Assembly (NCBI GenBank): GCA_026400565.1
Contig: JAPLOV010000129.1
Span: forward strand, 22,736 to 86,735
Direction of reading: 5' to 3'
Length of the DNA stretch: 64,000 nt
Origin: Hyphomicrobiales bacterium
GTDB taxonomy: Bacteria > Pseudomonadota > Alphaproteobacteria > Rhizobiales > Beijerinckiaceae
Shown in pieces: positions 4,057 through 15,714 of this stretch. Both the position numbers and the translations under genes were made by a program. The notes below the pieces were generated by a model, which saw nothing but the letters and a program-made list of their open reading frames with translations, was not told the origin of the DNA and made no database searches. The first letter of the stretch is position 1. Every line of letters begins with the position of its first letter.

Positions 4057-6522
4057 TCAACGGCTGATCAGGGCATCGATGCTCCCGATAAACTGGCCAA
4101 GCCCGCGTGCCAGCGATGGCGGCATGCGCGCCGCCATGTCGCTTGCCAAACCGGCGAACGGCTCGAAGCGGAAGACCACGGTCGAGCGCCCGGCAGGAAT
4201 GGCAACGGCCCGGAACAGCACGTTTGCGCGCAGGACAGGCTCTGCCTTGCCATTGACATCGGCGCTCCACCAGCGCTGCCAGGCATCGTTGAGAACCAGA
4301 AAGCCGCAGGCCGGCGACTGGACCTCGACCACCACTTCGGTGTTGGCATAGCGCCGGATGCTGGCGCTGGCGGGCCCGGCTGTTGCCTCCTTCGGCGGTT
4401 CGCACGCGGCGGACTGCGCCGGATCCGGCAGCAGGACAGTGCGCGCCGGATCGAAGCCATCGGGCCATTTTCCGGTGGCGAGCAGCAGCCCGGTATCCAC
4501 CGTGCGGGCCTCGGCCACTACCATGACGCGCGGCAGGGCGGCGCTGTTCTCGTAGATGTAGCCGTCCGCGGTGCGGGCGATCTGGCGCAGCGGTCCTGAC
4601 GCGAGGCTTGCGGCAGTGAGGCTCCTGTCGACCTGTTCGAGCGGCACGCGGCTGGCGATGAAACGCAGGCCAAGCATGTTGGCCAGCATGGAATTGTAGC
4701 CCGGCATCAGCGACGAGAACCGGCGTTGATCGGGCAGGGCGATGTGGTCGCCGGCTCCCGTGGCGCGCGAATAGTCGCCCAGCCTCAGGGGGTTGTAGCC
4801 CAGAGTGTGATCAAGCCCATGGGTCATGCTGGCGTTGGGCCAGTGGAATTCGATGCCGACGAGTTCAATGCGGTCGCGCCGGTCGGGGGCGGCCGTGCGG
4901 GCAAGCCCCGTCTTCAGCAGCGCGATGGTTTCATTGGCGCTGTCAGGGCGCAGGACATCGTATTGCGCCGTCGGCAGGCCGGTGGACTCGCTCGGGCCGT
5001 TGCTGACCGCCAGATCGATACCGACCACCGAGGCGATGAACAGCGCCGCTGCCATGGGCGCTGCCACATGGGCGCGGTGCACGAACCAGAGCATGACGCC
5101 GCCCATCAGCAGCACGATGGCGCTGGCAAGCAGCGGAACGGCCGCCACGTCGAGGCGGCCGGCATGCACGGCCAGCGCGAGCGCGCCGCCAAGGCCCACG
5201 ACGAGGGCCGCCAGCCCCGCGAGCCACTGCCAGAGCCGGGCAGGCCGCGCCACGCGTCCGGTCGCCAGCACATGCACGCAGTAGCCAGCCAGAATGGCGG
5301 CCAGCGCCCCGAAGTTGAACAGCGCATCTGCCGGGCGGCGATAGAAGGCAACGCCCGGCAGGAGGCCGTACAGAAGCTGGAACAGCGGCGTGTAGCGTCC
5401 AAGAGCATAGAGCAGCACCAGCACCGTGGCGATGCTGACCGCGCGGATGGCCGGATCCCAGGCACGGCCCCTCAGGATGCCGATAGCGGCAATCGCCAGA
5501 AGCGGCAGCGCGCCGATGTAGGCCACGCTCATGTTGCGCGCCAGGAAAAGGTCGACCGGGCCGAACACATCGTTCCAGCGCGGGCTCGGCTGGCCCCAAA
5601 AGTTCTCCAGCGGCCCTGCTGCGCCGAACAGGTTCGCCACCAGCAGCGTCAGCAGCGAGGCAGGGTGGAGGCTGCCCTTGCCCGCGCCCTCCAGATCGAT
5701 CATCGGGCGGTTGGATTGCTCCGCCAGCATCAGGGTGAACAGGATCGGCAAGGCTGCCGTCATGATCGTGGCGAGCGCCATGGCACCGAGCGGCTTCAGG
5801 CTGTGCCGGATGGCCCTCAATGGTGCGCCCGATTGCAGCCAGGCTGCCAGGGTGAGGCCTGCCAGCGTGTAGACGCCAATCAGGGCCACCTGGTCACGGC
5901 CGAGCACCATAAGGCCTGCTGTGAAACCTGCGGCGAGGCCATAGCGCGCGCTGCCACGGGAGAGGGCACGCGCCATCAGCCACAGCGTGATGGCGAAATA
6001 GCTCAGGCTCATCACCTGCCCGATGTGCTGGATGCGCCAGGCTGCGGCAGCGCCGAAGGCGAAGACCAAAGCAGTGGTCACGGCCCCGGCAGGCCCCCAG
6101 TTGCGGTCGCGGAACAGCATGACAAGGGCCAGCGCTCCGGCGAGCAGGCTCGCCAGCACCACGGCATCTCCCACCAGTGGGCCGGGGCGCGGAAACAGCC
6201 AGGCTGCGATCAGGTGTGGCGGCGAGGCGATCAGCGATTGCGGGTCGGCAATCTGGGGGTGCCCGGCAAAGACGTGCGGGTTCCAGAACGGCGCCTCGCC
6301 CTTCGCCAGAGAACTGGCGAGGAACTGGAACTGCGGCTGGAAATGAGCCTTGGCATCCCAGGGGATCGTCAGCGCGCCGGACAGCCAGGCCCAGTTCAGC
6401 GCCGCCCAGAACAGCGCAACGAGGCCGATCACACCCCACAGACGCTGACGGGTCCAGAGCGCAGGTTCAGGCCCGGCCGGAGCTTCGGATGAAAGGTCGG
6501 GGGCTGTCTCAGGCGCGCTCAT
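4057..6522 (-). CDS. YfhO-like polytopic membrane protein (putative GT-C glycosyltransferase)
   Basis: PFWNPHVFAGHPQIAD near the N-terminus, many TM helices, C-terminal LVLNDAWQRWWSADVNG..VLRANVLFRAVAIPAG..V.FRFEP domain. Confidence 0.8.
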   Translation of the reverse strand: MSAPETAPDLSSEAPAGPEPALWTRQRLWGVIGLVALFWAALNWAWLSGALTIPWDAKAHFQPQFQFLASSLAKGEAPFWNPHVFAGHPQIADPQSLIASPPHLIAAWLFPRPGPLVGDAVVLASLLAGALALVMLFRDRNWGPAGAVTTALVFAFGAAAAWRIQHIGQVMSLSYFAITLWLMARALSRGSARYGLAAGFTAGLMVLGRDQVALIGVYTLAGLTLAAWLQSGAPLRAIRHSLKPLGAMALATIMTAALPILFTLMLAEQSNRPMIDLEGAGKGSLHPASLLTLLVANLFGAAGPLENFWGQPSPRWNDVFGPVDLFLARNMSVAYIGALPLLAIAAIGILRGRAWDPAIRAVSIATVLVLLYALGRYTPLFQLLYGLLPGVAFYRRPADALFNFGALAAILAGYCVHVLATGRVARPARLWQWLAGLAALVVGLGGALALAVHAGRLDVAAVPLLASAIVLLMGGVMLWFVHRAHVAAPMAAALFIASVVGIDLAVSNGPSESTGLPTAQYDVLRPDSANETIALLKTGLARTAAPDRRDRIELVGIEFHWPNASMTHGLDHTLGYNPLRLGDYSRATGAGDHIALPDQRRFSSLMPGYNSMLANMLGLRFIASRVPLEQVDRSLTAASLASGPLRQIARTADGYIYENSAALPRVMVVAEARTVDTGLLLATGKWPDGFDPARTVLLPDPAQSAACEPPKEATAGPASASIRRYANTEVVVEVQSPACGFLVLNDAWQRWWSADVNGKAEPVLRANVLFRAVAIPAGRSTVVFRFEPFAGLASDMAARMPPSLARGLGQFIGSIDALISR

Positions 6523-6605
6523 GCACGGGACCATAGACGATGCAGACCGGGTGCGTCCTCACTGCGCAGCCGATGTTCCCACAGCAATCGCGCGGCTGCG
6601 TCCGC

Positions 6606-7736
6606 TCAATCGCTGGGGGCGGCGCGCGTCATCAGCACGTCCATGTCGATGTAATGGCCTGCGCGATCGCGCTTGGATTCCAGATACTGGACATTGTGCT
6701 TGTTGGGCCGACCCAGGACCCGGCGGCTGGCCTGCACCTCAAGGCCAGCATGCTTGATCGCGCCGATCTTGACCGGGTTGTTGGTCATGGCCACCACGCG
6801 GCGCACGCCAAGCGGCTTCAGCATCTCGGCGGCGAAATCGAAGCGGCGCTGGTCGAGATCGAAGCCCAGCACTTCGTCGGCGTCATAGGTGTCCCAGCCT
6901 TCGGACTGGAGGCGATAGGCGCGCATCTTGTTGGACAGGCCATTTCCGCGTCCTTCCTGATCGAGATAGAGCAGGATGCCGCCCTCGTTCTCGGCCATCC
7001 AGCGCACGGTATCGCGCAACTGGTCGCCGCAATCGCACTTCAGCGAGCCAAACAGGTCGCCGGTCAGGCAGGCGGAGTGAATCCGCACGTGGACGGGCTC
7101 ATCAAGGTTGAGTTCACCGACAACGATGGCGACCTGATCGCGCAGCCCCTCTCCGCCGCGGAACACCACGAACTCGGTGCGCGGGGCATCTTCGAGCGGC
7201 ACAGGCGCACGGCCGACGATGCTCAGTTCCTCGACCTGCGTCTTGCGGAAACTGTTGATGGCGGTGACTGCGACGCGCACCAGCGGTTCGTCGGCAATGG
7301 CGTCGGGATCGACCGGCACGATGACGAGGGCCGGAATGATCAGCGACAACGCGGTCAGTTCGAGCGCGCTGATGTCGATCGCGGTGGCCGGGGCAACCGG
7401 AGCATCGAGCCTGCCATCGACCTTGAGCACAAGCTGTTCGATGCGGGCCATGTCGATGGTCGGCAGCGCCACGACGCCGGGAACCTTGCGGTTGGCAGCA
7501 CCGAGACGGCGCAGGCGGGCGGCGGGCAGCGCAAGCCGGGCATTGCCGGCGGCAAAGGTGTTCAGGGTCTCGACGAAGCCCGCATCGAGCAGCTCGGCAG
7601 AGACAATCAGAGCAGCGCCCTCGCCACCCATCAGCAGCACCGGGCGGCCTGCACGCATCTCAGACATGGCACGGTCGACCGTCAGGAGATCCTGGCCACG
7701 GTCAAGACCGAGCACCGAACGCTTCTTCACGCTCAT
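6606..7736 (-). CDS. ribA: GTP cyclohydrolase II with a degenerate N-terminal extension
   Basis: VRIHSACLTGDLFGSLKCDCG (three Zn-binding Cys), QEGRGNGL, RAYRLQ, DQRRF, MTNNPVK. Confidence 0.92.
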   Translation of the reverse strand: MSVKKRSVLGLDRGQDLLTVDRAMSEMRAGRPVLLMGGEGAALIVSAELLDAGFVETLNTFAAGNARLALPAARLRRLGAANRKVPGVVALPTIDMARIEQLVLKVDGRLDAPVAPATAIDISALELTALSLIIPALVIVPVDPDAIADEPLVRVAVTAINSFRKTQVEELSIVGRAPVPLEDAPRTEFVVFRGGEGLRDQVAIVVGELNLDEPVHVRIHSACLTGDLFGSLKCDCGDQLRDTVRWMAENEGGILLYLDQEGRGNGLSNKMRAYRLQSEGWDTYDADEVLGFDLDQRRFDFAAEMLKPLGVRRVVAMTNNPVKIGAIKHAGLEVQASRRVLGRPNKHNVQYLESKRDRAGHYIDMDVLMTRAAPSD

Positions 7737-7833
7737 AAAAACACCATTCTTCCTGATCAAAAGGGCCGGATATGGCCATATGCAATTTTACGTAGTTTGT
7801 CATCCAGAGGTTGCAGCCAAACATTTGTCGCTT

Positions 7834-7926: not shown

Positions 7927-8484
7927 ATGGATGCCCACAAGGAACCGCTCGTTTACAGTGCCGCTGCACGGCATTTTCACTGGATCACCGCGGGCTTCGT
8001 GGTTGTCATGGCACCTGTCGGCGTGATCATGGCCGAGCGCGGCGAGCAGAACATCTGGGACGGCACGACCAACGCGCTCTATTCGGGCCACAAGTTGGCC
8101 GGCTTCATCCTGCTCTTCATTCTTGCGGCCCGGCTGGGCTACCGCCTGATCAAGGGGGCTCCCGCCGATGAGCCGACACTCGAGCCATGGCAGAAGACCG
8201 TCGCGCATATCACCCACTGGGCGATCTATGCCCTGCTGTTTGCCTTGGTTTTCAGTGGCTGGATCGGGATTTCGCTTTATCCCGCGCTCGACATTTTCGG
8301 GTTGTTCTCGCTGCCGGGTCTCGTCGCTCCCAATCAGGCGGCGGCGGCGCAGGCGCTGTTCGCCCACAAGATCTTCGGATTTGCCCTGGCTGGGCTGGTG
8401 GCGATGCACATCGCCGCGTCGCTGTTCCACCATTTCGTGCGCAAGGACGGCGTGCTCCGGCGCATGCTGCCCAGGAAGCCCTGA
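7927..8484 (+). CDS. cybB: Cytochrome b561 (CybB/YceJ family)
   Basis: YSAAARHFHW, HKLAG, HITHWAIY, H..ASLFHHFVRKDGVLRRMLP; four TM helices. Confidence 0.88.
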   Translation: MDAHKEPLVYSAAARHFHWITAGFVVVMAPVGVIMAERGEQNIWDGTTNALYSGHKLAGFILLFILAARLGYRLIKGAPADEPTLEPWQKTVAHITHWAIYALLFALVFSGWIGISLYPALDIFGLFSLPGLVAPNQAAAAQALFAHKIFGFALAGLVAMHIAASLFHHFVRKDGVLRRMLPRKP

Positions 8485-8499
8485 GGCCTCATTTTCTGG

Positions 8500-9336
8500 C
8501 TATATCGGCGTGGCAAACAGGTCGAGATGGCCGACGAGGCCTTGCCGGACCCCGCGCTTGGCCTCCAGCCAGCTGGCAATGTCGGCTTCGCCAACCTTGC
8601 CGGTCTCGCGCACGGCCGCGGCGATGCCAAGGGTGAGCGCATCGACAAGGCCGGCATCGGCGCCGGTCATCAGCCAGGGGCTGTCGGCGGTCTCGGCGCG
8701 ATAGCCGGAGGCCGCAAATGCTCCCGACATGGCGCGGCATGCATCCGGCCCGGCGGCAGGCCCGAAGCCCTTGTCGGAATGCTGGTGGCCGTGAAACGCC
8801 GCGACCATGGCGGCGTCCGCTGCGTGAGGTGGTTGCCATACCTCGCGCCCGTCATAGGTCAGCACCGTATAGAGCGGCAGCCTGCGGGCAGCGAGGGCGC
8901 CGACGAAACGATCGATCCAGCTTGGCGACACCAGATCAAACAGGGCGGCGGCTGTGACGAGATCGGGCTGCCAGTCGAGCACCTTCTCAAGATCGGTATT
9001 GAGATCGGCGCGGCGGAAATCGACCATCAGGCGCTTGCCATCCTTGACCAGCAGCAGTTCCTCGCCAGCCTCACTGGCCTCATCGGCCCACGCGGCAAGA
9101 CGCGTGCGGGCTGCAGCCAGCAGCAGCGGGTCGTAGTCAACCAGCGTCCAGTGCTGGCTGTCGCCAAACAGCCGCCATGTGCCACGCAGGTTCGAGCCCG
9201 CCCCGCAGCCGAGGTCCATGATGCTGATGTGATCGGGCGTGCCGAACCAGTCCGCCACGCGGGCGGCGAGGACTTGGTTGACCGAGCGGTGATCGACGGG
9301 CTCGCGCAGGGCAAGCCATTGTGCTGAGAAACTCAT
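8500..9336 (-). CDS. Class I SAM-dependent methyltransferase
   Basis: Motif I IMDLGCGAGSNLR, LVDYD, DLVTAAALFDLVS. Confidence 0.85.
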   Translation of the reverse strand: MSFSAQWLALREPVDHRSVNQVLAARVADWFGTPDHISIMDLGCGAGSNLRGTWRLFGDSQHWTLVDYDPLLLAAARTRLAAWADEASEAGEELLLVKDGKRLMVDFRRADLNTDLEKVLDWQPDLVTAAALFDLVSPSWIDRFVGALAARRLPLYTVLTYDGREVWQPPHAADAAMVAAFHGHQHSDKGFGPAAGPDACRAMSGAFAASGYRAETADSPWLMTGADAGLVDALTLGIAAAVRETGKVGEADIASWLEAKRGVRQGLVGHLDLFATPI

Positions 9337-9348
9337 GTCAGATCATCC

Positions 9349-10401
9349 TCATGGTCTGATGCCCTTGCACACATCGGCGATGATGCGGGCCGTGTCGGTC
9401 CAGCGCGGCAGGGTTGCCGCCGCAGCCCAGGCGGCATCGGCATGGCGCAGCCGCGCTCCGGCATCGCCGATCAGATAGGCCAGCGCTCCGGCCAGTGCGC
9501 CGGCATCGCCCGGCTCGACCTTCTGCGCGGCACTGTCTGGCAGTTGCGCTGCGCCAGAGCCGGACAGCGTGGTGACGATGGGCAACCCGCGCGCCAGTGC
9601 CTCGGTCAGCGCCATGCCATAGCCTTCGTAATGCGAGGCCATGACAAAGATATCGCTTTGGCGATAGTGCGCATCGACCTCGGTGTCGGTGAGCGCGCCG
9701 TGCAGCGTGACATGGCCATCAAGGCCCTTGGCTGCGATCAGGGCACGAAGAATGGTGCCGTAGCCCGTGCCGCCATGTTCCGCGCCAATGATGGTCAGGT
9801 GCCAAGGCAGCATCGGGATCGCGGCCAGTGCCTCGACCAAGACATCGTAGCCCTTGCGCGGCGACAGCGAGCCGACGGCCAGCAGGCGCACGGGCTGGCC
9901 GAAGCGCCGCTCGCTGGCGCGCTCCGCCGGCTCGACGCCCGGCTCGGCCACAGTAATCCGGCCAGCCGGAACACCGAATTGGGCGATCAGGATGTCGCGT
10001 GTCGCGGTGCTGGTCACGATCACCGCGCTGGCATAGCCAAGGGCCGCCGTCTCCAGCCGGATCAGGTCGGCAGCGCGGGCCGGATCAAGTCCGGTCTCAA
10101 GGCCAAGCGGGTGATGGCACAAAGCGACGACCCGGCCCGCCAGCCCTGCTGCAAACCCGGTCGGAAATGCGCCATAGGCCAGCCCGTCGATCAGGACGGG
10201 CGTGCGCCAGTCCTGTTCGAGCAGCAACCGGCTGGTCTCGGCAAGGTCCACCTCGGAAGGCGACGGAAACGAGCCGGGCAAGGGCACATGCACGGCCTCG
10301 ACGCCGAACTCCGGCAGCAGCCTGAGCACATGCCGGTCATACGCATAGCCCCCCGTCGGGCGGGTTATGTCCCCGGGGATGGCGAAGGCCACCGATGTCA
10401 T
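9349..10401 (-). CDS. Glycosyltransferase family 4 (GT-B)
   Basis: TGGYAYDR, VGSLSPRKG, SHYEGYGMALTEALARGLP (E-x7-E). Confidence 0.92.
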   Translation of the reverse strand: MTSVAFAIPGDITRPTGGYAYDRHVLRLLPEFGVEAVHVPLPGSFPSPSEVDLAETSRLLLEQDWRTPVLIDGLAYGAFPTGFAAGLAGRVVALCHHPLGLETGLDPARAADLIRLETAALGYASAVIVTSTATRDILIAQFGVPAGRITVAEPGVEPAERASERRFGQPVRLLAVGSLSPRKGYDVLVEALAAIPMLPWHLTIIGAEHGGTGYGTILRALIAAKGLDGHVTLHGALTDTEVDAHYRQSDIFVMASHYEGYGMALTEALARGLPIVTTLSGSGAAQLPDSAAQKVEPGDAGALAGALAYLIGDAGARLRHADAAWAAAATLPRWTDTARIIADVCKGIRP

Positions 10402-10799
10402 GCGAGCGGGCCTTCATAGGCGGCGCGAGCGAGATCGGTTTCGTGGAGCGTGACGCGGATGCGGCTCAGCCCCTTGCCATCCTCGCCCAGCGCGCCGGCC
10501 TTTGCGGCCTTCGCGATCTCGTCGAAGATGTGTTTGGCGAGAAACTCGGTGGTGGTGAGGATGCCCTTGAAGGCGGGAACCTCGTCGAGATTCTGATACT
10601 TCAGCGGCTTCAGGGTCTCGGCCAGAACGTCGAGCGCCGCTCCGATGTCGACCACGACATTGTGCCGGGTCATCGTCTCGCGGAAGAAGGCCACATCGAC
10701 CACAAAGGTCGCGCCGTGCATGTTCTGTGCGGGACCAAAGAACGGGTCCGGCAGCGAATGGCCGATCATGATGCGGTCACGGACTTCGACGGAGAACAT
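10398..10799 (-). CDS. 6-pyruvoyl-tetrahydropterin/6-carboxytetrahydropterin synthase-like T-fold protein (COG0720), atypical active site
   Basis: GHSL, FFGPAQNMHGATF, TTEFLA, VTLHET; 4-nt overlap with the GT4 start. Confidence 0.85.
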   Translation of the reverse strand: MFSVEVRDRIMIGHSLPDPFFGPAQNMHGATFVVDVAFFRETMTRHNVVVDIGAALDVLAETLKPLKYQNLDEVPAFKGILTTTEFLAKHIFDEIAKAAKAGALGEDGKGLSRIRVTLHETDLARAAYEGPLA

Positions 10800-10839: not shown

Positions 10840-11829
10840 TCAGTAGGTCAGGACTGCGGTGAGGTGCGGTGAGCCGGGCGCGAACAGCGCCGGCAGGCGC
10901 TCCGGGGCCTCGGTGAAGGGAATGTCGGCGCTGATCAGCGCATCCAGCCGGTCATCGGCCAGCAATGCCAGCGCCTTGGCCATGCGGCGGGCATAGTCCC
11001 AGCGAGGACGGCGCGCGGTGGCGACATGGCCGACCTGGGACGAGACGAGCCTGAGGCGGCGCGAATGGAAGGCTCCGCCCAGTGCAACCGGCGTATCGCC
11101 CGCGCCATGCCAGCTCAATTCGACGACGGTGCCCTCGAAGCCGGCGAGCGAGATGGCCTTGTTGAGGCCGGCCGCGCTGGCGGATGTGTGGATGACGACA
11201 TCGCAATCGCTGACGCCTTCACCATTGCTGCTGAAGCGGCAACCGAGCGAGGCGGCAATGCCGGCGCGCCTGGTATCGATGTCGATGATCGTGACATCCG
11301 CACCGGGCAGCCTTGCGGCCAGCGAGGCCACCAGCAGCCCGACAACGCCGGCCCCGACCACGGCGATGCGGTCGCCCGGCCCTGCGCCGGCATCCCACAG
11401 AGCGTTCAGCGCGGTTTCGGCATTTGCGGCCAGCACGGCACGGCGCGGCGGCAGGCTCGCAGGCAGCAATGTCAGCTGTTCCGGCGGCAGCGCGAAATGG
11501 GCCTGATGCGGATGCAGCGCGAAGACATGTCGCCCAACCATCATCTCCGGGCCGGCCTCGACGATGCCGACGGCGCAGTAGCCGTACTTCACGGGGAACG
11601 GGAAAGCGCCCGCCATGTTGGGGCCCCTCATCCGCTCGCTTTCCGAGGCTGGCACGCGGCCCTCGAAGACCAGCCGTTCGGTGCCGCGGCTGATGCCGCT
11701 GAACAGGGTCCGCACCAGCGCCTCGCCGGGTCGCGCCTCGATCGTCAGCTCATTCAGGGCGCATTCACGCAGTGCCACATACCACAGGGCGCGGGTCGTG
11801 ATCGGGCCGGTTCGCATGTCTGTCGTCAA
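10840..11829 (-). CDS. Medium-chain (zinc-binding ADH-like) dehydrogenase/reductase
   Basis: GroES-like N-domain LFSGISRGTE..PFPVKYGY and Rossmann motif VVGAGVVG. Confidence 0.88.
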   Translation of the reverse strand: MTTDMRTGPITTRALWYVALRECALNELTIEARPGEALVRTLFSGISRGTERLVFEGRVPASESERMRGPNMAGAFPFPVKYGYCAVGIVEAGPEMMVGRHVFALHPHQAHFALPPEQLTLLPASLPPRRAVLAANAETALNALWDAGAGPGDRIAVVGAGVVGLLVASLAARLPGADVTIIDIDTRRAGIAASLGCRFSSNGEGVSDCDVVIHTSASAAGLNKAISLAGFEGTVVELSWHGAGDTPVALGGAFHSRRLRLVSSQVGHVATARRPRWDYARRMAKALALLADDRLDALISADIPFTEAPERLPALFAPGSPHLTAVLTY

Positions 11830-11997: not shown

Positions 11998-13821
11998 ATG
12001 AACCAGCGTCCCGAACCGTGCAATTTTGCGGCCGAGGCCAGTCAGCCTGCGCCTGAACGGGCTGATGGCCTGACGCCTGCGGGTCTTCAGAGCCGGGCCC
12101 TGATGACACGGCGGCGGCTGACCGTGCTGGTGCTGAACGTCACGCCCTTCGTTGCGCTGATGTGGGGGCTGTCGATCGTGCTCGCCGCCGGCGGCTGGAC
12201 GGTGATCGACGTGGTGATTTTCGTTGCCTTTGCCTTCGGCGCTCCGTGGACCGTGCTGGGCTTCTGGAATGCGGTGATCGGCCTGTGGCTTCTGCACGGT
12301 GTTGGCGATGGCGTGGAGCGGGTTGCACCCTTCGCTGCGGCGGGGCATTCCCATGATCCGGTCACCGTGCGCACCGCCATCTTCATGACCTTGCGCAACG
12401 AGGATCCGGGCCGCGCCATCTTCCGGCTCAAGACCGTCAAGCAGAGTGTCGACGCGACCGGGTTCGGCGCGGCCTATGACTACTTCCTCCTCTCGGACAG
12501 CAATGACGAGACCGTGGCCGCCCGCGAGGAGATGCTGGCGGCCGAGTGGGCGCGCGAGGTCGGCGATCCATCCCGCGTGGTCTATCGCCGCCGCACCGAC
12601 AACACCGGCTACAAGGCTGGCAACGTGCGCGATTTCTGCGAGCGCTGGGGGGATCGCTACGAGCTGATGCTGCCGCTCGATGCCGACTCGCTGATGTCCG
12701 GCGAAACGATCGTCGCCTACACCCGCATGATGCAGGCGTACCCGAAGCTGGGCATCCTGCAAAGCCTCGTGGTCGGCATGCCGTCGCAGTCGGCCTTCGC
12801 CCGCATCTTCCAGTTCGGCATGCGCCAGGGCATGCGCTCCTACACGATGGGGCAGGCCTGGTGGGTGGGTGATTGCGGCCCTTTCTGGGGTCACAACGCC
12901 TTCGTGCGCATCGCCCCGTTCCGCGATGCCTGCCATCTGCCCGTGCTGCCGGGCGGCCCGCCGCTTGGCGGGCATGTGATGAGCCACGATCAGGTCGAGG
13001 CGACGCTGATGCGCCGGGCCGGCTTCGAGGTGCGTGTGCACCCCGAGGAAGGCGGCTCATGGGAAGAGAACCCGCCGACCATGCTCGAATTCGCCAAGCG
13101 CGACCTGCGCTGGTGCCTCGGCAACCTGCAATACATCAAGCTGCTGGACATTCCGGGCCTCAAGCTGATGAGCCGTTTCCAGCTTGTCTGGGCCATCCTG
13201 ATGTTCGTGGGCCTGCCCGCGTGGACGCTGATGATTGCGCTGCTGCCGTTCAAGGTGCTGGAGGATCAGGGTCTGGCCTTCTATCCGTCCGGGCTGGCTG
13301 CGGGGCTCTATGTTCTGTTCTTCGTGATGTATCTTTCGCCGAAGTTTGCCGGCGCTGCCGATATCTTGCTAACAAAGGGTGGCACGGCGCGCTGGGGCGG
13401 GACAGGCAGATTCCTGCTGTCCGCCGCTATCGAGTTGGTGTTCTCCTTCCTGCAAGGGGCGGTCTCGACCTTCCGCACCACGATCTTCATGATCGGGCTT
13501 GCATTCGGCAAATCGACCATCGGCTGGAACGGGCAGTCGCGCGATGCTCAGGCGCTGTCGCTCAGGACAGCCTTGCAAGGGCTCTGGCCGCATCTGCTGT
13601 TCGGCATCTACGTGATCGGCGCGCTCTGGGTGCTGTCGCCCAAGGTGATGTGGTGGGCCATGCCGCTGCTGGCCGGCTATGTGCTTGCGGTGCCGTTTGC
13701 CATGCTCACCGCCGCGCCGGCGCTGGGGCGCTGGTTCCAGCGCAAGGGGCTGTGCGCGATCCCTGAGGATGTGGCACCCCCGCCAGAGGTCGAGACCGTT
13801 CTGAAGGCGTCGCGGTCATGA
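11998..13821 (+). CDS. opgH: Glucan biosynthesis glucosyltransferase H (OpgH/MdoH-like GT2)
   Basis: LSDSND, YRRR..N.GYKAGNV.DFCERWG, LDADS, FWGHNA, SHDQVE, RDLRWCLGNLQ; C-terminal TM bundle. Start set at ATG 11998. Confidence 0.92.
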   Translation: MNQRPEPCNFAAEASQPAPERADGLTPAGLQSRALMTRRRLTVLVLNVTPFVALMWGLSIVLAAGGWTVIDVVIFVAFAFGAPWTVLGFWNAVIGLWLLHGVGDGVERVAPFAAAGHSHDPVTVRTAIFMTLRNEDPGRAIFRLKTVKQSVDATGFGAAYDYFLLSDSNDETVAAREEMLAAEWAREVGDPSRVVYRRRTDNTGYKAGNVRDFCERWGDRYELMLPLDADSLMSGETIVAYTRMMQAYPKLGILQSLVVGMPSQSAFARIFQFGMRQGMRSYTMGQAWWVGDCGPFWGHNAFVRIAPFRDACHLPVLPGGPPLGGHVMSHDQVEATLMRRAGFEVRVHPEEGGSWEENPPTMLEFAKRDLRWCLGNLQYIKLLDIPGLKLMSRFQLVWAILMFVGLPAWTLMIALLPFKVLEDQGLAFYPSGLAAGLYVLFFVMYLSPKFAGAADILLTKGGTARWGGTGRFLLSAAIELVFSFLQGAVSTFRTTIFMIGLAFGKSTIGWNGQSRDAQALSLRTALQGLWPHLLFGIYVIGALWVLSPKVMWWAMPLLAGYVLAVPFAMLTAAPALGRWFQRKGLCAIPEDVAPPPEVETVLKASRS

Positions 13822-14591
13822 GCCCTCTCGTGAACGCGCGCGTGGCCTTGCCGAAGGGCACCGCGCTGTCGCTGCGCCGCTCCTTGCGCGTCTATCACGG
13901 CGACAAGAGCCGGCAGCCGGCCATGGATGCGCTCTATGGCCGCTTCGTGCGGCCGGGCGAACTGGCCTTCGACATCGGCAGCCATGTCGGTGACCGGGTC
14001 TCGTCGTTCCGCCGGCTCGGCGCGCGCGTGGTGGCGCTTGAACCCCAGCCGGGATGCGCCCGTGCGCTCAGACTGATTCATGGCCGCGATGGCATGGTCA
14101 CGCTGGTCGAGGCTGCCTGCGGATCTGCCGCCGGCACAGTCGAGATGAAGATCAACTCCGCCAATCCCACGGTTTCCACGGCTTCGGACGCATTCGTGGT
14201 GGCTGCCAGCGGTGCGGAAGGCTGGGCTGACCAGGTCTGGGACCACACGGTCACCGTGCCCTGCGTGACGCTGGACGGCCTGATCGCGGCCCATGGCGAA
14301 CCGGCCTTCGTCAAGGTCGATGTTGAGGGCTTCGAGCACGCGGTGCTGGCCGGCCTGTCTCGGCCGGTGAAAGCCCTGTCCTTCGAGTTCACGACGATCC
14401 AGCGCGATGTCGCCGATGCGTGCATCCGCCGCCTCGGCGAGATCGGAAACTACCGCTTCAACATCGCGCTCGGCGAGAGCCAGGTGCTGGCCTTCAAGGA
14501 GGCCATCAGCGCGGACGCGATGATCGCACACATCGCGGCCTTGCCGCACGAGGCGAACTCGGGTGATGTCTATGCGGTGTTGCAGGGATAG
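13818..14591 (+). CDS. FkbM family methyltransferase
   Basis: FDIGSHVGD, VALEPQP, FVKVDVEGFE; ATGA overlap with the opgH stop. Confidence 0.9.
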   Translation: MSPLVNARVALPKGTALSLRRSLRVYHGDKSRQPAMDALYGRFVRPGELAFDIGSHVGDRVSSFRRLGARVVALEPQPGCARALRLIHGRDGMVTLVEAACGSAAGTVEMKINSANPTVSTASDAFVVAASGAEGWADQVWDHTVTVPCVTLDGLIAAHGEPAFVKVDVEGFEHAVLAGLSRPVKALSFEFTTIQRDVADACIRRLGEIGNYRFNIALGESQVLAFKEAISADAMIAHIAALPHEANSGDVYAVLQG

Positions 14592-14605
14592 GTCGCATCC
14601 GTTGT

Positions 14606-14705
14606 CTCATCCTTCGAGGCGCTCAGGATGAGGTGGCGGATCCGGGATCATGATCCACGAGTTTGAATGTCAACAATCCTCATGGTGAGCCTGTCGAACC
14701 ATGAG
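14606..14705. repeat. Inverted pair of REP-like palindromes (BIME/RIME-like)
   Basis: ctcatccttcgaggcgctcaggatgag (14606-14632) and ctcatggtgagcctgtcgaaccatgag (14679-14705) are related and inverted. Confidence 0.7.
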
Positions 14706-14736
14706 TTCCAGTTCGTGCATGAAAGAGGCCGTCTCC

Positions 14737-15714
14737 ATGTTCCGCATCTCCGCCACCCTTGCTGCCATGGCTTTCAGCGCGACCGCGTTCGCGGCGTCGC
14801 TCGATGCGGTGCCGGTGACCGTCACCAACGAATCGGAGCCGGTGCTGTGCGCCGAGAAGGACAACATCACGATCAAGGTGACCTCGCCCGAGGTGCGGCG
14901 CTTCCGGATCGAGGCGGCGCATCCGCCCTATATCGGCGGTCTGGTCAAGGACAACTGGGAGGCCGACTGGACAGCCTGCGACATGACGGGCGATCCGTCG
15001 TTCACCGCGCCGGTACCGCCGCGCCGGGTCACGTTCTACGAAAGCATCGAATACTGGCTGGTGGGCTACACCTTCCCGACCTTCTGGCGGCCTGCCGATA
15101 CCACGTTCCGCGTCGGTGACCGGGTCGAGAAGGGGCTGCATCTGGTCCAGCTCTGGAAGCTCGGCAAGGACAAGTCCTATGAGGTGCTGGTGGTCTATCC
15201 GCAGGATGGCTACTGGCGGGCCCGCCCCATGCCGCCGGCGCACCTGAGCTTCAATGCCTACGGCTCGTCGTTCCTGTTCGGCCCCGTGGAGCAGGAGGGC
15301 CGCCCGGTGGTGAACATCAAGGAGATCGAGTTCGACCCCAAGACGCTCGAGTTCAAGATGGCCTTCAAGGACGGCTCCAACGGCTCGCTGAAGCTTGAGA
15401 GCGTTGACGAGAACCGGATGATCCTCGATGTGGTGCTCGACAGGCCGGTGGGTGGCGGCAAGGCCTTCGCCGCACTGCGCTCGATGTATGTCACTGACTT
15501 CAACAACGACGTGTCACGCATCGCCGTGCGCGAACCCGGCGCAAGGCGCTGGCGCGAGGAGCACATCCTCGATTTCCAGAAGGCGCAGGGCACCGATGTC
15601 TGGATGGGCCGGCTGACCCATTCCCAGCACAACACCTCCTCGCCCGACCATGTCTTCAAGGGCTTCAGCAAGGATCCGAAGCGGCCGGAGCCGGCAGCGG
15701 CGCGCAAGCCCTGA
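14737..15714 (+). CDS. Uncharacterised exported protein
   Basis: Sec signal MFRISATLAAMAFSATAFAA, host-like GC3, beta-rich mature region with two Cys. Confidence 0.8.
   Translation: MFRISATLAAMAFSATAFAASLDAVPVTVTNESEPVLCAEKDNITIKVTSPEVRRFRIEAAHPPYIGGLVKDNWEADWTACDMTGDPSFTAPVPPRRVTFYESIEYWLVGYTFPTFWRPADTTFRVGDRVEKGLHLVQLWKLGKDKSYEVLVVYPQDGYWRARPMPPAHLSFNAYGSSFLFGPVEQEGRPVVNIKEIEFDPKTLEFKMAFKDGSNGSLKLESVDENRMILDVVLDRPVGGGKAFAALRSMYVTDFNNDVSRIAVREPGARRWREEHILDFQKAQGTDVWMGRLTHSQHNTSSPDHVFKGFSKDPKRPEPAAARKP

Follow-up and report, generated by a model that had tools for sequence, protein, structure and literature searches.

A 64,000-nucleotide stretch of a Hyphomicrobiales genome (Beijerinckiaceae; contig JAPLOV010000129.1 of assembly GCA_026400565.1, henceforth referred to as the window) encodes, at positions 10398-10799, a protein of the COG0720 family, to which the queuosine enzyme QueD and 6-pyruvoyl-tetrahydropterin synthase (PTPS) belong. 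We found that this protein is an orthologue of SCO6650 from Streptomyces coelicolor, neither QueD nor PTPS, and a member of the subfamily already named PTPS-IV. Its gene is translationally coupled in a cassette of four genes whose order is identical in Hyphomicrobiales, Actinomycetota and Pelagibacterales (SAR11). In view of this arrangement and of the riboflavin-type genes that accompany it, the protein is probably an enzyme of a tailoring pathway that branches off at RibA, the GTP cyclohydrolase II (GCH II); the link to the GCH II branch comes from gene context and is circumstantial.

Family membership and fold

The open reading frame (ORF) begins with an ATG that has an AAGGA Shine-Dalgarno sequence 8 nt 5' of it, and it ends in a TGA that shares the letters ATGA with the start codon of the gene downstream. 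The protein matched the Pfam PTPS profile (PF01242) with 75.6 bits against a cut-off of 22.4, residues 4-130 covering profile positions 2-120 of 121. Much lower scores were obtained with the NCBIfam equivalog for QueD (TIGR03367; 32.2 bits, cut-off 89.25) and with the PTPS/QueD subfamily model (TIGR00039; 27 bits, cut-off 125.5), both under their thresholds. The best solved relative is SCO6650 itself (PDB 3D7J; E 2e-37, residues 1-130, full length), with which the protein shares 52-58% identity and the motifs FGPAQ..HGAT and NY.NLD. An AlphaFold (AF2) model built from the family alignment (pLDDT 96.9) has the PTPS fold: Foldseek superposed it on 3d7j with a TM-score of 0.96 and a root mean square deviation of 0.7 A, and on QueD and PTPS structures with TM-scores of 0.7-0.8. 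Structures 3d7j, 3qna, 4ntk, 2g64, 3i2b and 1gtq were all matched with a probability of 1.00. The ORF thus codes for a genuine and strongly conserved protein of the PTPS/QueD fold (tunnel fold or T-fold, of beta-beta-alpha-alpha-beta-beta architecture), and across Hyphomicrobiales loci its identity is 80-100% when the genes beside it mostly reach only 45-75%.

PTPS-IV is a large subfamily. One search returned at least 7,997 proteins, many of which are labelled QueD or PTPS in their sources, and our representative library holds 1,130 PTPS-IV clusters at 50% identity; several library proteins (e.g. P0152, P0156, P0212) carry two or three PTPS-IV-like domains in tandem. In this genome, and likewise in 18/18 congeners, PTPS-IV is the single COG0720/PF01242 gene.

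The odd active site described below is not new, since it matches this named, zinc-less branch, for which a structure was solved more than 15 years ago. PDB entry 3D7J, released in 2008, is titled 'SCO6650, a 6-pyruvoyltetrahydropterin synthase homolog from Streptomyces coelicolor'. Spoonamore and colleagues reportedly found in 2008 that SCO6650 has no zinc, no catalytic triad and no PTPS activity, with the pterin-type binding site kept. The AGeNNT paper gives FGPAQ as the signature of PTPS-IV and describes 561 sequences with a neighbourhood of PF00925 (GTP cyclohydrolase II) and PF01872 (RibD_C) (PMC5445326). Residues 21-25 of our protein read FGPAQ, and the window has PF00925 at a distance of 2.6 kb, with no RibD_C gene adjoining. 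Zallot et al. (2016) count PTPS-IV as one of the subfamilies of COG0720 and refer to unpublished data for a role in F420 synthesis (PMC5041015). No papers beyond these two came up when we searched the literature for FGPAQ, SCO6650, SCO6655 and this set of genes.

An altered active site

Residue equivalences were taken from HMMER alignments to E. coli QueD (4ntk) and to rat and human PTPS. His14 and His28 align with His16 and His31 of QueD, the first and second zinc ligands, and Ala30 aligns with the third, His33, so that the canonical HGH is here HGA. Ala24 occupies the position of the QueD nucleophile Cys27 (the 4ntk entry itself has Ala there). Counting from His28, Gly22 takes the place of the PTPS-II cysteine (C-x5-HGH; six residues before His28) and Gln25 that of the PTPS-III glutamate (E-x2-HGH). 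A first, sequence-only reading of this DNA had stated that the Cys or Glu nucleophile and one zinc histidine are missing and that the ring-binding glutamates are retained, and the alignments agree with it on each of these points. They also go beyond it: Lys67-Tyr68 align with Asp70-His71 of QueD and with the Asp-His of rat and human PTPS (PLKYQNLD here, PLDHKNLD in rat PTPS, LDHH in QueD), which means that the Asp-His part of the triad is lost too. Judged from the alignments, the Cys-Asp-His triad is therefore fully lost, together with one of the three zinc histidines, and His14, His28, Glu85 and Glu120 are retained. Glu85 (in TTTEF) aligns with the ring-binding glutamate of the TTE motif, and Glu85 and Glu120 would be the residues that hold the 2-amino-4-oxo-pyrimidine ring.

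This pattern is not peculiar to one genome. Among 26 PTPS-IV representatives sharing 38-65% identity, F21, G22, A24, H28, G29, T31, D51, L71, E85 and E120 were invariant, and H14, S15, P23, A30, D72 and T84 were conserved in at least 90%. Fixation of the altered motif across these representatives indicates a family trait, neither chance nor decay.

The characterized subfamilies share the fold with PTPS-IV and differ from it at the catalytic positions. QueD (PTPS-I; E. coli 4NTK/3QN0) has a T-fold of equal size (TM-score ~0.76) in which the first two zinc histidines and the ring-binding Glu align, but PTPS-IV has Ala24, Ala30 and Lys67-Tyr68 for Cys27, the third His and Asp70-His71, and we found no QueE partner in the genus. 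QueD identity was rejected on these residues, on the TIGR03367 score, on the lack of QueE in the 10 congeners searched and on the lack of a true QueC in this genome. PTPS-II (rat 1B66, human 3I2B) gave the best match outside PTPS-IV (E 1e-4), with HG, NLD and TTE motifs that align, but the C-x5-HGH motif is absent (Gly22, Ala30) and Asp88-His89 is replaced; with 27 bits against the 125.5 of TIGR00039, this identity was also rejected. Plasmodium PTPS structures were among the Foldseek matches, as is in keeping with the fold that PTPS-III (the FolB bypass of Plasmodium and some bacteria) has in common with our protein, but Gln25 stands in for the catalytic Glu. We rejected a PTPS-III or FolB-substitute identity on this residue and on the presence of FolB beside PTPS-IV in 16/18 congeners; as these congeners keep FolB, a bypass of the PTPS-III type is not needed.

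A cassette conserved in three distant lineages

In the window the cassette reads, on the minus strand, MDR-type dehydrogenase, PTPS-IV, GT4 glycosyltransferase and methyltransferase, with gaps of 40, -4 and 12 nt. We counted neighbours, using related loci and tblastn, at 80 PTPS-IV loci each from Hyphomicrobiales, Actinomycetota (including Streptomyces) and Pelagibacterales. The dehydrogenase, GT4, methyltransferase and a GCH II gene were present at 72, 78, 74 and 58 loci of the Hyphomicrobiales (many of the loci without a cassette gene are contig ends), at 77, 75, 57 and 38 loci of the Actinomycetota (GCH II within 10 kb) and at 80, 77, 72 and 66 loci of SAR11, always with the four cassette genes in identical order. 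A RibD_C-like reductase accompanied 70/80 SAR11, 38/80 actinobacterial and 19/80 Hyphomicrobiales loci, although it is not found in the window, and a creatininase-family gene was present at all 80 SAR11 loci. GTP cyclohydrolase I (FolE) was beside PTPS-IV at none of the 160 Hyphomicrobiales and Actinomycetota loci.

The dehydrogenase is probably a zinc-less secondary-alcohol dehydrogenase, its best family match being BchC. Searched against PDB sequences, it and the GT4 protein had none but generic matches, and the methyltransferase had none at all. The proposed pathway is further supported by P0253, a natural 1037-aa fusion of PTPS-IV, HAD hydrolase, methyltransferase and MDR dehydrogenase, the last with 32% identity to ours (E 8e-32).

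Streptomyces loci have the same dehydrogenase, PTPS-IV, GT4 and methyltransferase cassette with GCH II nearby, and differ from the window in what is added to it. They carry a creatininase-family gene, a GCH II with Met in place of the Tyr (Met-type, see below) and a flippase-like membrane protein (LPG_synthase_TM, PF03706). The last lies directly after the methyltransferase in 71/79 actinobacterial loci (e.g. L105:12356-13420 (+)) and has no counterpart in the Hyphomicrobiales loci; it was found by conservation count, gene calling from GC content at third codon positions being too noisy in the Streptomyces locus. The window has instead a long-form RibA of the Tyr type, which is also the sole competent GCH II of the genome, and neighbours specific to Hyphomicrobiales (OpgH-like GT2, FkbM and YfhO-like proteins).

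The GTP cyclohydrolase II branch

In the RibA of the window the Cys motif for zinc is intact, and a Tyr still stands at the position of E. coli Tyr105. The other GCH II domain in the genome belongs to a RibBA-like protein (L085:676-1965, contig C249) without the Cys zinc motif, which leaves the window RibA as the only competent GCH II and, hence, probably also as the housekeeping riboflavin enzyme. For the N-terminal ~190 aa of the window RibA, Pfam gave no match, and BLASTP showed similarity neither to the genome's RibB domain nor to the gene found upstream of ribA in Actinomycetota. RibA is likewise of the long form in SAR11, and the extra region could have arisen from RibB by degeneration or be an additional pathway domain.

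In the actinobacterial clusters the residue at the Tyr105 position of GCH II was Tyr in 24 loci, Met in 14 and His in 6 (e.g. L163:14253-14900, L105:15198-15971). A creatininase-family gene was present in 14/14 loci with the Met type, in 3/6 with the His type and in 0/24 with the Tyr type. That the Met-type GCH II always comes with a creatininase-family hydrolase, and the Tyr type in Actinomycetota never does, is new here. We take the Met-type SCO6655 to make an N-formyl product, and the archaeal deformylase ArfB is a member of the creatininase superfamily; the constant company of the two genes therefore reads as a formylated product needing a deformylase.

These associations bear on the substrate. 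According to the sequence-only reading, the protein would plausibly act on the RibA product and not on dihydroneopterin triphosphate. Gene context in three lineages (RibA, RibD_C-like reductases, creatininase-family hydrolases and the lack of FolE at the 160 loci) speaks for this part of the reading, and does so circumstantially. The AGeNNT paper came independently on PF00925 and PF01872 in the surroundings of PTPS-IV (PMC5445326).

Proposed pathway

The branch point would lie at the earliest intermediates of riboflavin synthesis, 2,5-diamino-6-ribosyl(ribityl)amino-pyrimidinone 5'-phosphate, or at the N-formyl form where GCH II has Met or His for Tyr. Such a substrate would keep the 2-amino-4-oxo edge that is recognised by the T-fold glutamate. 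A reductase step followed by oxidation of C2' by the MDR dehydrogenase would lead to the same 1-amino-1-deoxy-ketose as an Amadori rearrangement, and closing the ring onto the 5-amino group would next yield a dihydropterin. PTPS-IV would act on the side chain by acid/base catalysis without zinc, with His14, His28, Asp51, Glu120 and Gln25 as candidate acid/base residues. The most likely form of this step, which we put forward quite tentatively, would be an isomerisation or ring closure that yields a pterin-like bicycle from the open aminopyrimidine and corresponds to the later half of what GTP cyclohydrolase I does. The dehydrogenase, the methyltransferase and the GT4 protein would tailor the product into a methylated glycoside.

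A chemical precedent exists in Chlamydia, where an Amadori isomerase takes the RibA product to dihydroneopterin phosphate (PMC4161248). That bypass of GTP cyclohydrolase I by RibA and TrpF, in which isomerisation of the GCH II product is followed by closure to dihydroneopterin phosphate, resembles the step proposed here, but the catalyst is a TIM-barrel phosphoribosylanthranilate isomerase whose fold is unrelated to PTPS-IV, and the role of PTPS-IV is so far a proposal. Put together, the genes could form a GTP-cyclohydrolase-I-independent route made up of RibA (with a deformylase in some lineages), a RibD_C-type reductase and the MDR dehydrogenase, in which PTPS-IV closes or isomerises the ring and the product becomes a methylated, glycosylated cofactor or envelope head group; as a complete scheme this is a speculative possibility.

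Several points weigh against a RibA-branch pathway. The place of RibA in the window could be housekeeping synteny, as it lies beyond a gene on the opposite strand, and many loci labelled Hyphomicrobiaceae have no RibA within reach. FolE is encoded elsewhere in the genome, which makes a dihydroneopterin substrate possible. In SAR11, where the creatininase-family gene goes with a GCH II of the Tyr type, the rule seen in Actinomycetota is broken, and the deformylase logic therefore does not hold everywhere. The P0253 fusion is a singleton on one 3.5-kb contig, and the isomerisation or ring-closure step is purely one that we infer. To this must be added that the accessible literature holds no biochemical datum for any PTPS-IV member, and that the one published remark on function, 'involved in F420 synthesis' (unpublished data in PMC5041015), names a different end product.

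Alternative explanations

The cassette might instead tailor a pterin made by GTP cyclohydrolase I, with PTPS-IV acting on dihydroneopterin (tri)phosphate or a derivative and RibA being housekeeping only. We consider this rather improbable. The pocket does keep the pterin-binding Glu residues, and RibA, the only competent GCH II, stands behind an opposite-strand gene. Moreover, this 94% complete assembly contains FolE elsewhere, FolB, FolK and FolP were not found in it, and there is no pathway for de novo queuosine synthesis; if the absences of the folate genes were real, FolE would need another client. A Pterin_bind match does occur in a 1261-aa open frame, which we take to be MetH rather than FolP. 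However, FolB and PTPS-IV occur together in 16 of the 18 congeners compared, and the missing folP, folB and folK are best explained by a single unassembled contig. FolE is also absent from the 160 loci mentioned above, and in Actinomycetota and SAR11 the genes that accompany the cassette are extra GCH II paralogues, RibD_C-like reductases and creatininase-family hydrolases.

This genome and two small metagenome-assembled genomes of the genus (G009, G012) measure 3.4-4.0 Mb as against 5-7 Mb, and lack FolB and a true QueC. Either a contig is missing, or these genomes form a reduced subclade that is auxotrophic for folate.

A second alternative is that PTPS-IV is non-catalytic, a ring-binding carrier or scaffold that guards an unstable, oxygen-sensitive diaminopyrimidine or reduced pterin, or passes it to the cassette enzymes. 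No residue with a known part in PTPS/QueD chemistry is left (the Cys, the Asp-His pair and the last of the zinc histidines have all been exchanged), while those that bind the ring persist, and conservation is unusually high relative to the neighbouring genes, as it would be for an oligomeric binding protein. Yet the invariant polar residues in and near the canonical active-site positions (His14, Gln25, His28, Asp51, Glu85, Glu120) look like a remodelled active site and not like a relic. The gene also stays at one position in an operon of enzymes, and P0253 joins PTPS-IV to enzymes in a single chain. A carrier role is in our opinion distinctly unlikely.

A working QueD, or a PTPS-III-like substitute for FolB, with an unusual active site is very improbable. 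Close homologues are labelled 6-carboxytetrahydropterin or 6-pyruvoyl-tetrahydropterin synthase in NCBI and JGI records, and a protein atlas likewise gave just the QueD mislabel; the gene is the only COG0720 member in this genome and 18 congeners, most of which have QueC, and FolB was not found here. Against this stand the scores far under the QueD and PTPS cut-offs and the loss of the nucleophile, of Asp-His and of the third His. In addition, QueE was found in none of 10 congeners with two models that match in 9/14 control genomes, and this genome has no true QueC, only partial PP-loop matches. In the one congener examined for it (G013, L249:5280-7541), QueC adjoins a salvage-type transporter (Vut_1/YhhQ-type) and a phosphoribosyl pyrophosphate synthetase. 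QueC beside a transporter, with neither QueD nor QueE, suggests salvage of a 7-deazaguanine precursor and not its de novo synthesis. As for FolB, it is kept in 16/18 congeners, and here FolK and FolP are missing along with it, as expected for one missing contig.

A role in coenzyme F420/Fo biosynthesis, hardly credible in our view, has in its favour the remark of Zallot et al. (PMC5041015) and the likeness of the associated genes to the archaeal ArfA/ArfB/ArfC steps, which feed riboflavin and Fo. Neither CofH (Fo synthase) nor CofE was found, however, in this 94% complete genome, on which we rejected an F420 enzyme in this organism, and the glycosyltransferase and methyltransferase of the cassette have no role in known F420 synthesis. 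To our knowledge, SAR11 and Bosea are not F420 users either.

Genomic surroundings in the window

Between the cassette and ribA lies a cytochrome b561 gene, which is probably outside the pathway; its synteny is restricted to Hyphomicrobiales, with 0 occurrences in Actinomycetota or Pelagibacterales loci. Further out, the flanks at 11998-15714 (+) and 4057-6534 (-) encode an OpgH-like GT2, an FkbM methyltransferase, a conserved 337-aa ORF and a YfhO/PMT-like membrane protein. In Hyphomicrobiales these accompany 68/80, 65/80, 59/80 and 56/80 loci, respectively, and none of the four was found in Actinomycetota or Pelagibacterales loci. An envelope destination of the cassette product is thus possible, but would not be general.

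Nine studies have metagenomes from lakes and fresh water in which the DNA of the window occurs. One freshwater metatranscriptome has three read-sized exact pieces of it in the GT4 and PTPS-IV genes, a weak hint of transcription for which carry-over of DNA is possible; stretches that no read covers carry no information.

Features of the window discussed in the text. Positions count from the first nucleotide of the window; SAM, S-adenosylmethionine; ADH, alcohol dehydrogenase.
Feature	Position	Strand	Remarks
MDR-type (BchC-like) dehydrogenase, cassette gene 1	10840..11829	-	GYCAVG where zinc ADHs have GHE
PTPS-IV subfamily protein (COG0720 / PF01242), 133 aa	10398..10799	-	PF01242 75.6 bits; 3d7j E 2e-37; AF2 pLDDT 96.9
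FGPAQ..HGAT signature, codons F21-G-P-A-Q-N-M-H28-G-A30-T31, in place of C-x3-HGH	10707..10739	-	alignment; signature of PMC5445326
Lys67-Tyr68 codons, at the canonical Asp-His site of the Cys-Asp-His triad	10596..10601	-	alignment
GT4 glycosyltransferase	9349..10401	-	start overlaps PTPS-IV stop (ATGA)
SAM-dependent methyltransferase, last cassette gene	8500..9336	-	no curated family
Cytochrome b561, between cassette and ribA	7927..8484	+	in 65/80 Hyphomicrobiales loci
Long-form GTP cyclohydrolase II RibA, PRK08815 type	6606..7760	-	alternative ATG at 7736
RibA N-terminal region, ~190 aa	7191-7760	-	no Pfam match

Implications

The protein itself is no surprise, and the interest lies in the pathway behind PTPS-IV and not in its motif. 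A four-gene order is kept in three distant lineages, genome-streamlined SAR11 included, and is tied by its gene context to the opening steps of riboflavin synthesis. For the annotation of genomes, the QueD and PTPS labels that public records attach to PTPS-IV proteins (e.g. P0022, P0027, P0068, P0084) are wrong for pathway reconstruction: in this genus a QueD label would falsely suggest de novo synthesis of queuosine, and a PTPS label would do the same for biopterin. If the proposed route is true, the makers of its cofactor or envelope head group would extend from SAR11, which are the most abundant bacteria of the sea, via freshwater Hyphomicrobiales to Streptomyces.

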